Of a DNA stretch of 64,000 bases, positions 1,841 to 36,884 are shown piece by piece (position 1 is the stretch's first letter; every line of letters starts with the position of its first letter). A program made the position numbers and the translations under genes. This DNA comes from a virus (taxonomy: Duplodnaviria > Heunggongvirae > Uroviricota > Caudoviricetes): the IMG/VR virus record IMGVR_UViG_2706796243_000001, one strand, 5' to 3'. The notes under the pieces were generated by a model. The model did no database searches, was not told the DNA's origin, and saw only the letters and a list, made by a program, of their open reading frames with translations.

Positions 1841-2314
1841 ATGGATACAGCTATCCTAACGCCGTATGCGTATGACCCTAAAAAAGTCAAACTGTACCTG
1901 ATGACCCAGCGTGTGACTGGTTTCGCCGCAGATACTAAAATCGTCGTTGCCCGTAACGAAGATAACATCATCCCCCACATGGGGGTTGATGGTGAGTTAT
2001 CCGCCGCACTGTCACGTAACCAATCTGGTGTCATGACGGTTTCCCTTCAGAACACTGCTTCTTGGAACGGAAACTTTGCAAACTGGCAGAAACAAGCCTC
2101 TATCACCGGACTGATTTTCTTCCCTGTCCTTCTTGAAGGTTCTCAGGGTATGGGACTCAGCACCATCGGTTGGATTCAGAAACAACCAGACCTGACCTAC
2201 GGAACAGAAGTGGGCCAGATGGACTGGGAAATCGGTATCCTTGATGCTTGGTTAAGCCCAGATACTCTGTCTTCCGCAGGCTTCGGTCTTGCTGGCCTGA
2301 CTGGTATCGTTTAA
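1841..2314 (+). CDS. Tail tube protein (DUF3277-like)
   Basis: 157 aa directly after the sheath; AYDPKKV, GVDGE...RNQSGVMTVSLQNT motifs. Confidence 0.85.
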   Translation: MDTAILTPYAYDPKKVKLYLMTQRVTGFAADTKIVVARNEDNIIPHMGVDGELSAALSRNQSGVMTVSLQNTASWNGNFANWQKQASITGLIFFPVLLEGSQGMGLSTIGWIQKQPDLTYGTEVGQMDWEIGILDAWLSPDTLSSAGFGLAGLTGIV

Positions 2315-2388
2315 GTGTTTCGTGTGCCACATGGACGTGGCCTTTATACACGCATGGATAACTCAACCACAAAGACGCAGGAGCGTAC

Positions 2389-2862
2389 ATGAATATCAGA
2401 CCGACAACTGAAATCGACCTCGCAGGTCACAACTTCATTATCACGCACTGGTCTCCAACGAAGGTCATGAAAAACCTTCCGAAGATCGGTCGTTATGTAG
2501 CAGTCCCAATGGCAACCATTTCTGGTTCCATGATGACTGGAGGCCAGAACCTTTCTGATGCCCTCCCTACAGCTATTCTATACCTCTTTGAACAGATGGA
2601 GCAAGATGATCTCGAAAAACTTTTCGCATTGATTCTTGAAGATGTATCCGTTGATGGTATGGCGGGTAAAGTAGATATTGACGCTCTGTTCCAAGACAAA
2701 ATGTTAGACCTCATCAAGCTGGTTGCTAAAGTTCTGGAGATTAACTACGGCTGTTTTTTCACGAAAGACGGTTTCGCAGACCTTCAGGGACTTCTGGGAC
2801 GCCTGGGACAGACCCATCAAGTGAACTCGGTGGATCAGGCAATGGAAGTGGCAGCGGAGTAA
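2389..2862 (+). CDS. Tail assembly chaperone (gpG-like)
   Basis: Between tube and tape measure; contains NYGCFF over a slippery T-run. Confidence 0.85.
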   Translation: MNIRPTTEIDLAGHNFIITHWSPTKVMKNLPKIGRYVAVPMATISGSMMTGGQNLSDALPTAILYLFEQMEQDDLEKLFALILEDVSVDGMAGKVDIDALFQDKMLDLIKLVAKVLEINYGCFFTKDGFADLQGLLGRLGQTHQVNSVDQAMEVAAE

Positions 2863-3140
2863 CACCGTCCAAAATTTCGAAAGTCGTCCTGAGAGCTATG
2901 GATTATGCAAAGAAAAATAGCTCACTGACTTGGTTCGATTACTTATGGTGTCGTGCTCTGAAAAACTTCAAGGGGGAATCCTATAGCTCCCTTGAATCTG
3001 CTGATATGGCCTATCTGCTCAAGCTGAATGAATACCTCGATGTGGAAGAATTCGTTTCTGATGTCCACGAAAGAGAGGAAGAAAGTAAAGCAAGGGCTAA
3101 TCAAGCTGCAAACAGGCCGCGCCGTGGTAGAAGAGGTTAA
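2389..3140 (+). CDS. Frameshifted tail chaperone (gpGT-like, about 250 aa); includes track ORF 2898..3140
   Basis: 124 codons in frame 0 plus 126 codons in the -1 frame, joined by a Gly/Ser-rich linker. Confidence 0.8.
2754..2760 (+). promoter_or_regulatory. -1 programmed frameshift slippery site T TTT TTC
   Basis: X XXY YYZ heptamer; the -1 frame is open from 2745 (after TAA 2742-2744) to 3140. Confidence 0.85.
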
Positions 3141-31794: not shown

Positions 31795-32637
31795 TTATAC
31801 CTTTCGGGCATTGTTTGGGAATTCTCTCTTTTCTGTATTTCCCCAGATTATCCGCACCGCTGAAGAACCAGGTGAGCTTGAAGATCCGTGTCCAGCCCCA
31901 CCCCCAAATTTACCACCCTGGCGACCTGTAGGGTCTGCCCCACCAGACCCGCCTCTTGCTATTGTTGGTGAATATCCACCTCTACCTCCATGACCATTGA
32001 CCCCAACGCCATAGATTCCGACACCGCCACCGCCACCGGAGTTCTCCCCAGATGTGGAACCAGAGAAGTAATAACCACATGAGCCACCGCCACCGCCTCC
32101 CTGACCATCCTGGCCTTGAGAGTACATTGTTGATGCTGGGTATGCATTACCGCCATCACCACCTTTCCCAATATACCCTGCGGCACCACCTGCGCCACTG
32201 CAACGTTTTATATCATTGGCTGAGGTATTATTCCCACCCGCGCCGCCTTTATTTATCACTGCATCACCCATATCTGGGTATTGCCCCGTGTACGGTTCAG
32301 GTCCTGACCCGAAACCAGCAGCCACTAGTGGTACAGAACCACGAAACAAACCTACAAGCGTCGTCCCATCTGCATTATTTTGTGTAAACACTTGTAAAAT
32401 CTCTCCAGGAAAAACTGGGATGTTGTTTCTCCACACCAAGTCTCCACCCGCACCTCCACGTCTTGGAAGTGGATTAGTTTGTGCTGCCCCTCCTTGACCA
32501 ACACAAAGTACACTGACCTCCTCGACATTGGCAGGGACAGTCCATGATTGTGGGGAGGAAGATATGTTGGTAAATTCCACATTACCAACAGGAATCGATT
32601 TCTTTGTTTCACTTGTAGCAAGCATCATCTCAAACAT
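31795..32637 (-). CDS. Glycine-rich adhesin-like protein
   Basis: SWTVPANVEEVSVLCVGQGG then many GGxGG repeats ending SGAVRIIW-like (SSAVRIIWG). Confidence 0.75.
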   Translation of the reverse strand: MFEMMLATSETKKSIPVGNVEFTNISSSPQSWTVPANVEEVSVLCVGQGGAAQTNPLPRRGGAGGDLVWRNNIPVFPGEILQVFTQNNADGTTLVGLFRGSVPLVAAGFGSGPEPYTGQYPDMGDAVINKGGAGGNNTSANDIKRCSGAGGAAGYIGKGGDGGNAYPASTMYSQGQDGQGGGGGGSCGYYFSGSTSGENSGGGGGVGIYGVGVNGHGGRGGYSPTIARGGSGGADPTGRQGGKFGGGAGHGSSSSPGSSAVRIIWGNTEKREFPNNARKV

Positions 32638-32676: not shown

Positions 32677-33024
32677 TTAGTGACACTCAGCCCAGTTTTT
32701 ACCCGTTAAGTAAGCACCTGTGATATGCACCGGAGAACCCATCATACGAGCAGCTTTCTCAACACATTTCACCACCATCTCACCAACAGGGCAATACTGG
32801 ATGTGTATCTTCCCATCTTCACCAAAGACGCCCTCATACACCGTATTACCTTCGGCATCCTTGACATTTTCACCATTCTCGTCTTTTACAGCCTTTCTCC
32901 ACTCATGCCCGTCAAATACGCGGCCTTTTGCTTCCCATTCTTTTACGAAAGCTTTTGCATCTTCCAGGGTATCAAACTCCCACTTCTTCAAGTATTTCTT
33001 AGGAACCTGGAGCTGGTATTCATC
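32677..33024 (-). CDS. DNA polymerase (family A) exon 3
   Basis: Begins GAT GAA (DEYQLQV), completing motif C YHDE; ends YLTGKNWAECH like T7-type PolA. Confidence 0.92.
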   Translation of the reverse strand, partial: DEYQLQVPKKYLKKWEFDTLEDAKAFVKEWEAKGRVFDGHEWRKAVKDENGENVKDAEGNTVYEGVFGEDGKIHIQYCPVGEMVVKCVEKAARMMGSPVHITGAYLTGKNWAECH

Positions 33025-33795
33025 CAAAAGTTTAGCGAGGTCGTTAATCTCGCCCACACCATTACGTGTTGCCATACGTTTTCACGTAGGATCGGACCAT
33101 ATCACCATCCTTTTCAGGATGCTCCCCATTTCGACGGCACTCGCTCGTCTACGCCTTTCGGCTGGCCTCTGAACGTTAAGACCAATGATACGAAGATGAT
33201 ATATGCAGCCATTGTCGTCTCTGCTTGATGGCCCTAACTGTTCCGTATGGGTAGCCCATGTCTCGGATGGCAGCTTGACTAAAGCCTTCCTGCAAGAGGT
33301 AGCAGATTTTCTCCACTTCTCCCTCTGACAACTTACTGTTTGCATTGGCAATACCTGTTGCACTTCTACCTTCCAACGTGTAGCAATGTTCTATGTTCTT
33401 ACCTCTTGTTACCCAGCGGAGGTTGGTGTAGTGGTTGTTGGTCTTATCACCATCCTTGTGGTCAACCTCTGGGAGGTTATCCGGGTTGGGAACGAAACAC
33501 TCAGCCACTAAAACATGCACAGCTTTTGTCGTTGTTCTTTTATTAAGGTAGAGACTTACAATTAGGTAGCCCCTCCCATTATCTACCTTTTGCATCGGTT
33601 TCCCGCGCCTTCCGATAATGGTTCCGTCTTCGTAAACCACATATCCGTGGTAGTTTACACTTTTCATTGATCCTCTTCGCTGCTGATTAACATAGTTGTA
33701 TTTTACTCTATTATCGAGTGAATATCAACCTTAGCCTCCCAGCAATTAAAGGAGTTATTCGATGTGAGTTACCTCACAAAGCCACAATGTTATTT
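33025..33795 (-). mobile_element. Group IA intron 2 (771 nt) in polymerase motif C
   Basis: Exon ends in U (CAT), intron ends in G; P AATTGCTGGGA, Q AATCAGCAG, R GTTCAGAGGCCA, S GATATGGTC; P3, P7.1, P7.2, P8, P9 and P10 pair. Confidence 0.93.
33176..33667 (-). CDS. Intron-encoded HNH homing endonuclease (I-HmuI-like)
   Basis: VHVLVAECFVPNPDNLPEVDHKDGDKTNNHYTNLRWVT plus C-terminal HTH-like region. Confidence 0.92.
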   Translation of the reverse strand: MKSVNYHGYVVYEDGTIIGRRGKPMQKVDNGRGYLIVSLYLNKRTTTKAVHVLVAECFVPNPDNLPEVDHKDGDKTNNHYTNLRWVTRGKNIEHCYTLEGRSATGIANANSKLSEGEVEKICYLLQEGFSQAAIRDMGYPYGTVRAIKQRRQWLHISSSYHWS

Positions 33796-34128
33796 ATGGT
33801 AGTAAATCAGACGACGAACATCATCATCGTACCAACCACGCTTGACCAATTCCCAATGTAGAAGGATGCCAACCAGGTCAAACAGAGATGCACCACCGTT
33901 TTGTTGGTAAGCATTCAGTAACGAGTGCTTAGAACGGGTCCAAATCTTACGACCATCCAATCCAGGAATATAACGCTTCCCTGTTGCTTCCCAGAAGTTT
34001 TCCAGCCATTCTTTACGGCCTTTCAACCCGAAGTTGCTATCCCAGAAAGCATCTATTACTGCCTGAGCTTTGTCAAGGGAAATATTAAGCATCGCAGCAA
34101 TCTTCGCCGCCTGAGCACCGTACATGAT
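33796..34128 (-). CDS. DNA polymerase exon 2
   Basis: IMYGAQAAKI...YIPGLDGRKI..RSKHSLLNAYQQNGGA...IYYH. Confidence 0.92.
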
Positions 34129-34258
34129 CCTAATGTTCAACAGGGTTCGCTAATTCCTGCCCGTTCTCTTATGAACTGCTGCATGTTTCCATGCAGAGCA
34201 GACTATATCTTCATCCTCTTGGGATGTCCACCGCTTCGAGCCGCTTGGCCCTACTCCG

Positions 34259-34660
34259 TTACCGGATAGTCGTTGGGATTTTACCTCTTGCCAAATACCA
34301 CTCTTCACCACTACAGTAAAGATTGTTGCAAACAGCATGTTCTACATTAGATGCACGGCATGATAATTCTATATTTTCCCAGCAATTATTCAATGTGTTT
34401 GCATCTAGGTGGTTGACCTCTTCCTCTTCAAGAAGGTCTCTACCGATCTTTGCCGCACAAATCAACCTGTGCAACAAATAGTGTTTGCCATTTTTCAAAC
34501 AGATACGCTGATAAAATTTCTTTCCCTTACCTTTGTGTAGATAGGGCTTCAACTTTCTTAGTTTTCCACGATTGCTGGAGTATATATTACCTTCGTGGTC
34601 ACAAAAGTATCCGTTTGATATTGGTATTTTAGCCAAGGTACTTATCTGCTGATTGTCCAT
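34259..34660 (-). CDS. Intron-encoded HNH homing endonuclease
   Basis: LLHRLIC...EVNHLDANTLNN..ENIE...N; AGGAGG SD. Confidence 0.9.
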   Translation of the reverse strand: MDNQQISTLAKIPISNGYFCDHEGNIYSSNRGKLRKLKPYLHKGKGKKFYQRICLKNGKHYLLHRLICAAKIGRDLLEEEEVNHLDANTLNNCWENIELSCRASNVEHAVCNNLYCSGEEWYLARGKIPTTIR

Positions 34661-34681
34661 TTCATCCTCCTAAAAGGAGAA

Positions 34682-34709
34682 ATCATACATAAATTTTTCA
34701 AACTGTCAA
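34682..34709 (-). promoter_or_regulatory. Intron-internal sigma70-like promoter TTGACA-16-TATGAT
   Basis: Directly upstream of the HNH SD and its occluding hairpin. Confidence 0.7.
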
Positions 34710-34811
34710 GCCCATCCTCGCGGATCACTTTGTAGTATTTATGTCTTTAGGATTTCCCAGCAATTCAATGGATGCACCTTATAAATTACTCTATAAGGGG
34801 GCTATCAATTA

Positions 34812-36884
34812 ACCATAAGTAACACCTTTACCGCCGCTTCGAGTTACTAGTGTACCTGAAGCTTTGGTGTACGCCTCTGCGTTTCGTGCGTGAGCATCAC
34901 CACTTTCCATGATACGGAGGTATTCCCCACCATCAAACTGGTATGCCCCCCATGCAGCTACCATCCCTTCAAGGTTGGAACCGTCAATACCGACCTGATA
35001 ATACCCGTCAGTAACGCCCCACAGCCCACGCATTTCCTTACCAAGCAGAACCTTCGGATCTGGCTTAGGCATGTTTGCACAGATGGTGTGCTTGCAGCGC
35101 CCTGTGTTTGTGATCCCAGAAAAACGTGCTGGAAGCTTCCCGTCGATTGCCAGTCGAGGGTGGTTCAACAGACCTGTGTCATTCTTATCTTCATCAATCG
35201 GGTCAAGGACTGATCGACGGTTACGCAGGGATAACCATTTGACAATCTGTTTAGCCAAGTGGACATCAATTCGTTCAAGGTTCGGACACAGCTTACCAAA
35301 GTTATCCTTCAACTGAGGTGAAGTAGGCAATTGCCGTGCCTTGCGCCTGAATTTCTTGAAGATCTCTGCGTATGCCTTCTCTGAAGCATGACGATGATCG
35401 AATTTCCGCTCTGAGATATTGAACTTATCATCACTGTTATTCAAATGCTCAATAATCAATGACTTATATTCAGACTCTCCAAGTTCCTCGATATACTTCT
35501 TGACAAGTTCATCGATTTCTGGATCAGTTCTGGCCTTCTTGAACTGATCTTTTGTCACATCTTTCACACGCCACAGAGTAGGCTTCCAGTTTGCATCTCT
35601 AATAAGGTACTTCTTGATGTCATCCTGGTTAGAGATCTTCATCGGGACCATCAGATCAGGCATTTTTCCTGCTCTTAAGTCTTCCTTGGCTTTCTCCAGC
35701 AAGTCTGGTGGTAATGGCTCCAGAGTGTTCTCTTTGTTACGTTGCTCCCTGATGAAATCACCAAACAGGGAAGGATCTTCAACTCCGTTCTGGATGCAAT
35801 ATCTCTCACCAGCAGCACTTACATCCCCGTTTCCCTTGAATGCTGTCTTTGGTGGCCCTTTGAATTCAAGAGCCTCTCGGTTAACAGGGTAACCTAATTT
35901 GTATTGTAGCCAATTCCACCCGTGGTGTGAAATATTCCCCGCCCCATCGAACGGGTTGGCTGGGAACTTAGGCTGTTGGGATTTGGTCATCTCCTTCATT
36001 GGGAGGAGTGGTTCAACCTCTTCTTCAATCTCCTTCATCATCACATCAATGCGATCACGAAGTTTTTCAGCCTCATGTTTATTAAACGGAACACCCTGGA
36101 TTTCCTGTTCAATCATCAGGTAGTCGGTAAGCATACGACGACGAAGCGCATTCTTCCAGTTAATCTGGCGCATACCTTCTGGTTTGTCCGTGTACATGAA
36201 CTGCTTATCATCAGGCCAGCGAGCGCCTGTAGATTCATCAATTAAGGCTTTCCACACCAGTTCGTTGATCAACACGTCTTCCCAAACACGGTTAACGTAC
36301 TCCCAAAGGGGTTGGTTACGCCAGTCGTCAATCTGAACTTTCTTGTTAGCTACGCGATAACCCCATGCCATCAAACCATGTGGGCCAACGCGATCTCGCT
36401 TCCCTGTAACCGGGTTAAGAACTGAATCAGGACACCCGTTTGGCAATGGTCGGTCAGGATAAAGCACACGACTCATAGACAACGTGTCGTACAGGTTTAC
36501 TTGGGTATCCCCAATTGTACCCATACATTTCGGGTCTTTGAACATGTTGTATTCAATGCCGGAAAGCTTCTTCCAGAGGCGCAGGTCATAACCAAACAGG
36601 TTGTGACACGCAATACCACGGCAAGTCTTCAGGAACGACTCAAGCTCGTCGTATGACCGGATCGTGAGATTGGCTTCAGTCTTGCTTCTGGCATATGTTA
36701 CAGCACTTTCGTACTCTGGATGTTTCGGGTCAAGAAACAGGTTCCAGTTATTTACACCGTACTCTTTGATCAGGGTGCAGTGATACTTCGTTACTTCGTC
36801 TAACAGGCCATCGGCCTCGTTATCGAGTATGAACAAGCCTTTTATGATTCCTCCTATGCAAGGTGGGTTGGTCTGTATCGACAC
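34812..36884 (-). CDS. DNA polymerase exon 1 (3'-5' exonuclease, motif A, first half of motif B)
   Basis: LDNEAD, HNLFGYD, DVLIN exonuclease motifs; GIDGSNLE motif A; RSGGKGVTYG; true start may be 36845. Confidence 0.93.

Follow-up and report, generated by a model that had tools for sequence, protein, structure and literature searches.

Two predicted group I introns within a Seunavirus-like phage's DNA polymerase gene, and signs of their exchange between phage genomes

Can a phage DNA polymerase gene that is interrupted inside two of its catalytic motifs still yield a single polymerase, and where did the interruptions come from? The question is raised by a stretch of 64,000 nucleotides (nt) of a virus of the Caudoviricetes (IMG/VR record IMGVR_UViG_2706796243_000001), which is called the window here. 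On the minus strand of the window, positions 32677-36884 hold three polymerase-like open reading frames (ORFs) of 691, ~111 and ~115 codons, with two stretches between them that each bear an ORF for an HNH protein. As judged from its sequence, this is one gene, which belongs to a Seunavirus-like Salmonella phage, codes for a DNA polymerase of family A (T7-type) and is split by two mobile group I introns of the IA2 type.

A polymerase gene in three exons

When the region is compared with GenBank phages by megablast, the matches fall in the Vequintavirinae (rV5-like myoviruses), and the nearest are two Salmonella Seunavirus phages: GE_vB_MG (MG969411), which covers 100% of the region at 95.8% identity, and NINP13076, which covers 66% of it at 97.9% identity. 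The GE_vB_MG record, the only near-identical one that is public, is flagged UNVERIFIED, carries no annotation and has many single-base insertions or deletions (indels) that break the polymerase frame. In NINP13076 the polymerase is encoded by one uninterrupted gene of 2754 nt (L001 1578-4331, minus strand), and a blastn alignment of this gene with the window gives three collinear blocks, 36884-34813, 34128-33796 and 33024-32677. Five features follow from the comparison:

34812..36884, minus strand: polymerase exon 1; 691 codons with a GTG start; 98.9% identical to NINP13076 and collinear with it; aligned with T7
34129..34811, minus strand: intron 1, IA2-type group I; 683 nt, starting TAA and ending G
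33796..34128, minus strand: polymerase exon 2; 111 codons, from IMYGA (motif B) to ...LIYYH (motif C); 98.8% identical to NINP13076; aligned with T7
33025..33795, minus strand: intron 2, IA2-type group I; 771 nt, starting AAA TAA and ending G
32677..33024, minus strand: polymerase exon 3; 115 codons and a stop, opening with the catalytic DE of motif C; collinear with NINP13076; aligned with T7

Joining 36884-34812, 34128-33796 and 33024-32677 gives 2073 + 333 + 348 nt, or 691 + 111 + 115 codons and the stop: a frame of 917 codons that is free of internal stops and has the same residue as NINP13076 at 907 of 918 positions. What is excised is 34811-34129 (683 nt) and 33795-33025 (771 nt), both on the minus strand. 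Both boundaries are fixed, as the two sides of the joints have not a single base in common, so that sliding is impossible; since they coincide exactly with a 99%-identical uninterrupted allele, the match goes far beyond chance. A preliminary description, made from the letters of this DNA alone, had arrived at the same two inserts and the same 917-codon frame, and comparison with the intron-less NINP13076 gene proves it exact.

The places at which the gene is broken can be read against known structures. The intron-less orthologue (98.8% identical) matches T7 DNA polymerase structures with an E-value of 1e-20, and the alignment pairs GIDGSNLE with GIDASGLE, RSGGKGVTYGIMYGA with RDNAKTFIYGFLYGA, and YYHDE with WVHDE. 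The exonuclease domain and motif A (GIDGSNLE) lie in exon 1, which ends with the first half of motif B, ...RSGGKGVTYG; exon 2 gives a weak match to Pfam DNA_pol_A. The joined exons have motifs A, B and C complete with the catalytic Asp and Glu, as in family A polymerases of the T7 gp5 type. With a caret marking the junction, the peptides across the joints are ...GKGVTYG^IMYGA... at site 1 and ...LIYYH^DEYQ... at site 2. In the T7 structure alignment, site 1 lies after the YG of motif B (T7 TFIYG^FLYGA) and site 2 separates the His of motif C from its catalytic Asp (T7 VH^DE), in agreement with the earlier placing of the two inserts in motifs B and C.

The fragmented annotation that the preliminary description expected is found in relatives: the K54_rec phages and CB7 are annotated with three 'DNA polymerase' coding sequences and with HNH coding sequences. 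For the window, the proper annotation is one spliced polymerase of 917 amino acids with two introns, in place of three 'DNA polymerase' fragments plus a pair of 'HNH endonuclease' genes.

Ribozyme cores, nuclease genes and the case for splicing

A group I intron is expected to leave its mark on both the exon ends and the core, and the group IA architecture proposed beforehand (P4, P7.1/P7.2, GNRA-capped stems, U-ending exons, a terminal G and P10) is present in full and can be assigned to subgroup IA2. At both sites the 5' exon has T as its last base and the insert has G. P1 places the last exon U opposite a G (GGUUA/UAGCC in intron 1, CCAUAA/UUGUGG in intron 2), P10 is formed by complementarity of the 3' exon to the P1 loop (AUCA/UGAU in intron 1, GAUG/CAUU in intron 2), and P4 appears as UGCUGG/UCAGCA in the Rfam alignments of both introns. 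The 3' halves of the two ribozymes comprise these helices:

34129..34275, minus strand: 3' half of the intron 1 ribozyme; J6/7, P7, P7.1, P7.2, P3', P8, P7', P9, P9.1 and P9.2
33025..33178, minus strand: 3' half of the intron 2 ribozyme; J6/7, P7, P7.1 (GCC-GAAA-GGC), P7.2, P3', P8, P7', P9, P9.1 and P9.2

Covariation supports these helices in two separate alignments of the 3' half. For intron 1, seven relatives were used (K54_rec3, CB7, Yep-phi, Ekidair, LBC2, the RB3 nrdB intron and 201phi2-1); RNAalifold recovers P7, P7.1, P7.2, P8, P9, P9.1 and P9.2, and 23 of 37 pairs are kept through changes on both strands. For intron 2, where the seven sequences are orthologues from the same site (CB7, CR9, APECc02, KP12, JEP1, LTH01 and Pseudomonas phage SPA01), it recovers P7, P7.2, P8, P9, P9.1 and P9.2, and compensatory changes mark 16 of 41 pairs, with a U-A/C-G exchange in P7 among them. 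Covariation is found for P7.2 in both alignments and for P7.1 in that of intron 1; for P2, P3 and P4 it was seen by eye in the 5' alignment. A further helix that RNAalifold draws in intron 2 between J6/7 and the 3' splice region (columns 4-10 with 195-201) is given no weight, as its columns hardly vary.

Subgroup IA2 is recognised by the extra helices P7.1 and P7.2 between P7 and P3', linked by G-U-A (PMC3428280). In intron 1 this segment reads CCG-GUAA-CGG, A-GUA, GGGCC-AAGC-GGCUC, and in intron 2 GCC-GAAA-GGC, GUA, GACGaGC-GAGU-GCCGUC. An independent sign of splicing constraint comes from the exon: the last codon of exon 1 is GGT in all five of the intron-1-bearing alleles, as against GGC or GGA in all seven of the intron-1-free alleles examined, a synonymous difference that supplies the U needed at the splice site. 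An intein reading of the inserts is ruled out, as both begin with in-frame stop codons.

Inside each ribozyme, in its P6 region, lies a nuclease gene, as the preliminary description had noticed, and both ORFs pass the Pfam HNH_3 cut-off:

34259..34660, minus strand: HNH homing-endonuclease gene of intron 1; 133 amino acids; Pfam HNH_3 E 1.5e-08
33176..33667, minus strand: HNH homing-endonuclease gene of intron 2, in the P6 loop; 163 amino acids; Pfam HNH_3 E 4.1e-10
34709-34682, minus strand: putative sigma-70-like promoter, TTGACA-16-TATGAT; 11/12 match to the consensus, the best in the region
34683-34659, minus strand: predicted hairpin (-8.0 kcal/mol) pairing the AGGAGG ribosome site of the intron 1 nuclease gene
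33700-33728, minus strand: weaker sigma-70-like site, TTGATA-17-TAAAAT, a consensus match only (10/12); in the P5 loop of intron 2, just 5' of the HNH gene

The protein encoded in intron 2 gives a match (E 2.3e-09) to I-HmuI (PDB 1U3E), the nicking endonuclease from the polymerase intron of SPO1, and is 51-100% identical to the intron 2 nucleases of SPA01, APECc02, LTH01, CR9 and K54_rec3; its UAA stop codon overlaps J6/7. For the 133-amino-acid protein of intron 1, no match to a solved structure was found. Its ORF begins in the P5 loop and extends across P5', P4' and P6 as far as the GUAA loop of P7.1, where the stop codon lies. The promoter-like site in intron 2 parallels the stronger one in intron 1.

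Two observations weigh against a reading in which both inserts are working ribozymes. The first is the score of intron 2 in the group I model search that the preliminary description had put forward as a check. Against Rfam RF00028, intron 1 reaches 63.8 bits, above the gathering score of 50, and is the only match at the gathering threshold in the whole window; intron 2 reaches 39.3 bits (E 6.7e-08, in a local search run in E-value mode), which is under the gathering score. The low value is an artefact, because the ORF displaces P7 in the alignment: RF00028 puts the 5' strand of P7 near the start of the ORF, and the ORF-less orthologues place the true P7 after it. Such ORF-less copies from the same site score 69.8 bits (KP12, Klebsiella, 343 nt) and 73.7 bits (JEP1, Escherichia, 328 nt), and the core of the KP12 intron is 92.7% identical to that of the window. 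The second is that the intron 1 nuclease ORF overlaps P5', P4', P6, P7 and P7.1, so that translation and folding could interfere with one another.

The mechanism proposed for the locus, with a probability of roughly 0.93, is as follows. The whole gene would be transcribed as one pre-mRNA, in which each intron would fold as a ribozyme and be excised by guanosine-initiated, two-step transesterification; ligation of GGU to AUC at site 1 and of CAU to GAU at site 2 would then restore motif B and the H-D-E of motif C. A message left unspliced would terminate immediately, TAA being codon 1 of intron 1 and codon 2 of intron 2. In a mixed infection the HNH proteins, taken to be of the I-HmuI type, would most likely nick intron-less polymerase alleles, and repair would copy the intron in (homing). 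The evidence for such nicking is indirect, namely the presence/absence polymorphism of the introns and the co-conversion tract described below.

Unspliced inserts, with the polymerase made as three polypeptides that assemble, would be a very improbable arrangement here. Split genes separated by free-standing nuclease genes do occur, for example that of Aeh1 NrdA with mobE. For the window, in-frame starts of the later fragments can be called (TTG at 34140, ATG at 33075), and the annotation of relatives as three 'DNA polymerase' coding sequences would suit such an arrangement; so would the behaviour of an HNH-containing insert in the nicotinamide phosphoribosyltransferase gene of Pectobacterium phage CB7, which was found not to splice (PMC7344957). 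However, one of these breaks splits motif B and the other parts the His of motif C from its Asp; the candidate starts lie within conserved ribozyme helices, and no ribosome site is evident for them; both inserts retain a complete ribozyme core that shows covariation; and the U at position -1 tracks the presence of intron 1. Moreover, the polymerase inserts of the same phage CB7, at the same two sites, do splice in vivo, as smaller products in reverse-transcription PCR, confirmed by Sanger sequencing, have demonstrated (PMC7344957). By analogy with CB7, it is likely that both introns also splice in the phage of the window, whose replication may with good reason be held to depend on two splicing events.

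Transfer of intron 2 and the mosaic make-up of intron 1

Intron 2 of the window is identical at 771 of 771 positions to that of AV124 and of K54_rec1, K54_rec3 and K54_rec5, which are phages of the genus Mydovirus, and the exons around it are 82-86% identical. The exon that follows the intron has two parents:

32891..33024, minus strand: co-conversion tract; exon 3 is of Mydovirus type over its first 120-134 nt, and the remainder of the gene is of Seunavirus type

Over nt 1-120 of exon 3, the window has 28 mismatches to NINP13076, 2 to K54_rec3 and 3 to the intron-less Mydovirus KB57; over nt 135-348 it has 3 mismatches to NINP13076 and 49 to K54_rec3. For this contrast Fisher's test gives p of about 1e-8 to 1e-11. 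In pairwise alignments over the first 50 nt of exon 3, the NINP13076-type bases are for the most part shared by the more distant Seunaviruses KE22 and KE23. On the other side of the intron, the exon is of Seunavirus type up to the junction, with the final 15 nt identical in all phages compared. The identical intron 2 in diverged exons, together with the Mydovirus-type start of exon 3, leads to the conclusion that a Seunavirus genome took intron 2 from a Mydovirus-like donor, along with 120-134 nt of downstream exon, an asymmetric co-conversion tract.

An abrupt switch of parentage next to sequence that is 100% identical to that of another genus could also arise if contigs were joined wrongly in a mixed phage sample, and short-read assemblers can join contigs at such places. 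That the identical intron 2 and the Mydovirus-type stretch of exon 3 are an assembly chimera of this kind is nevertheless scarcely credible. The mosaic recurs in GE_vB_MG, an independent GenBank entry that comes from a different country: there the same tract of Mydovirus type gives way to the same remainder of Seunavirus type, and its two introns differ from those of the window by indels only, with 0 substitutions, which argues against a chimera. In addition, the upstream exon keeps its Seunavirus type right to the intron 2 junction, so that two precise joins would have been needed.

The distribution of the introns among relatives is patchy: NINP13076, KE22, KE23 and KB57 are without both, and AV124 and CR9 have intron 2 only. 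With an intron more conserved than its exons and a co-converted flank, the locus has the features of intron mobility, and it offers a clear-cut case of the recent move of an intron from one phage genus to another with different hosts, in which the donor-type exon tract is still visible.

The same comparison bears on the possibility that the introns are real but serve mainly to control the timing or dosage of the polymerase, a slow or protein-dependent splicing step delaying replication, and are not neutral selfish DNA. The overlap of the intron 1 nuclease ORF with core helices, and the hairpin over its ribosome site, could couple translation to folding, and some polymerase introns of the Bastillevirinae are spliced only in mid-cycle (PMC11878797). 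This reading is nonetheless unlikely: some close relatives lack both introns or have only one, which argues against a required regulatory role, and the footprints of horizontal spread fit selfish mobility.

For intron 1, signs of movement are of two kinds. Of the 27 differences from NINP13076 in exons 1 and 2, six fall close to the intron, at most 10 nt upstream or 24 nt downstream of it; this cluster looks like a short co-conversion tract or a footprint of nuclease resistance. The intron itself is assembled from parts with different relatives. Its nt 1-61 and 537-683 are 87-97% identical to intron 1 of K54_rec3 and CB7, and its nt 44-166, a segment of 123 nt that includes P4, P5, the promoter-like site, the hairpin and the start of the ORF, is 92% identical to CB7 intron 2. 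The protein shows the same affinity: the intron 1 nuclease has 55% amino acid identity to CB7_50, the nuclease of CB7 intron 2, and is unrelated to the 149-amino-acid intron 1 nucleases of CB7, K54_rec3 and KP12. CB7 intron 2, for its part, is a ribozyme of the CR9 type, with ends 100% identical, but it carries this different cassette.

Because the ends of intron 1 match other intron 1s while P4-P5 and the nuclease match CB7 intron 2, nuclease cassettes have been exchanged between the two ribozymes of the polymerase gene. The exchange probably took place by recombination in the core sequences that both share, at P4 and at J6/7-P7. The cassette consists of the P4-P5 segment, the promoter-like site, the hairpin-masked ribosome site and the HNH gene, and intron 2 lies 333 bp downstream of intron 1. 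A tentative and rather doubtful extension is that the nuclease cassette is mobile on its own between the two ribozymes of one gene. Were this so, the target of a nuclease need not be the insertion site of its own intron, and one nuclease could drive the co-inheritance of both introns; the locus, together with the transfer of intron 2, would then be a natural record of cross-genus homing and module shuffling.

Relation to other phage polymerase introns

The preliminary description implied that twin introns at these motifs were new, and this is not borne out. In Pectobacterium phage vB_PatM_CB7 the polymerase is annotated as CB7_49/51/53 with two introns that contain HNH genes (CB7_50 and CB7_52), an arrangement common to phage phiTE (Buttimer et al. 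2020, PMC7344957), and both phages are of the same subfamily as the window phage. The twin-intron arrangement at these two sites is therefore already known in the subfamily, and the observation is correct but ordinary; published there and common in relatives, it leaves the knowledge of phage introns unchanged. What the present alignments add, as modest extras, is the cross-genus transfer of intron 2 with its co-conversion tract and the mosaicism of intron 1.

The likeness to CB7, also a member of the Vequintavirinae, is close. In a tblastn search with the spliced product of the window, the exon borders of CB7 fall at the same two junctions, ...GKGVTYG^IMYGA... and ...IIYYH^DEYQ...; identity amounts to 87-95% in the 5' and 3' parts of intron 1 and to 85-93% at the ends of intron 2, and both introns hold an HNH gene. 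The two differ in genus and host (Certrevirus and Pectobacterium for CB7, Seunavirus and Salmonella for the window) and in their nucleases, that of intron 1 in the window being akin to CB7_50 and not CB7_52, and that of intron 2 being of the CR9/K54_rec type. CB7 and K54_rec3 also have free-standing HNH genes on both sides of the polymerase (L004 416-982 and 4989-5474; L002 815-1477 and 5667-6176), whereas the window is without any.

Among the Klebsiella mydoviruses, vB_Kpn_K54_rec1-6 and KP12 carry both introns, and Escherichia phage AV124 has a single-intron allele. Intron 1 is at the same site in CB7, K54_rec3, KP12 and GE_vB_MG; in the K54_rec phages and KP12 its ribozyme ends are 92-97% identical to those of the window. 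They differ from the window in their exons (82-86% identical), in the unrelated intron 1 nuclease and, in KP12, in an intron 2 of 343 nt that has no ORF. There are 26 records that contain the 5' end of intron 1 joined to its exon; where their annotation is readable, the gene is that of a polymerase. Carriers of intron 2 include AV124, CR9, PBES02, APECc02, LTH01, W70, JEP1 and many rV5-like phages, and one or both introns are found in many relatives from Klebsiella, Escherichia and Cronobacter.

Introns in the polymerase genes of T7-like phages, which belong to a different phage family, are similar in having the IA2 architecture, in carrying the nuclease gene in P6a and in being hosted by a gene for a family A polymerase. 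In Klenow numbering, site 881 of Escherichia coli Pol I is presumably the His of motif C, that is, the site of intron 2. The introns of the T7-like phages phiI and W31 are reported at site 881, as cited in PMC3428280. Over its 3' half, intron 1 shares 77-83% identity with two other introns, one from T-even nrdB and one from a T7-like polymerase gene; the annotated intron of Yep-phi, a T7-like Yersinia phage, stands at 83% over this half. The idea that the Yep-phi intron occupies the same site as intron 1 was rejected, as the junctions put it 10 nt upstream, inside the Phe codon of KTF^IYG.

The introns of SPO1, Bastille and Pf-WMP3 are reported at site 674 in E. coli numbering (PMC3428280). 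Introns of the SPO1/I-HmuI type share with those of the window the combination of a group I ribozyme and an HNH nicking endonuclease in a phage family A polymerase gene; they differ in their Gram-positive hosts and in their site, and the ribozymes have no close similarity beyond the common core. In the Bastillevirinae, two or three introns per family A polymerase gene are common (PMC11878797).

Two relatives of intron 2 stand in unusual settings. In Pseudomonas phage SPA01 (Pakpunavirus; L011 3501-4292), a homologue interrupts the polymerase at the same junction, His^Asp, and the two polymerases share only 26% identity; the nuclease of this homologue is 51% identical to that of the window, and all pieces are annotated as hypothetical proteins. 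In JEP1 (L009 ~2139-3083), the polymerase coding sequence is ~315 codons longer than those of relatives, with an in-frame segment that opens with Cys right after ...GDAH, upstream of motif B; this extra segment looks like an intein, in a gene that also has the ORF-less intron 2.

As for the surroundings of the gene in the window, 27 nt separate the end of a primase/helicase gene from the start of the polymerase, and a glycine-rich gene comes after the polymerase stop. This last ORF (31795-32637, minus strand) lies directly downstream of the polymerase and encodes 280 amino acids; it has no Pfam match.

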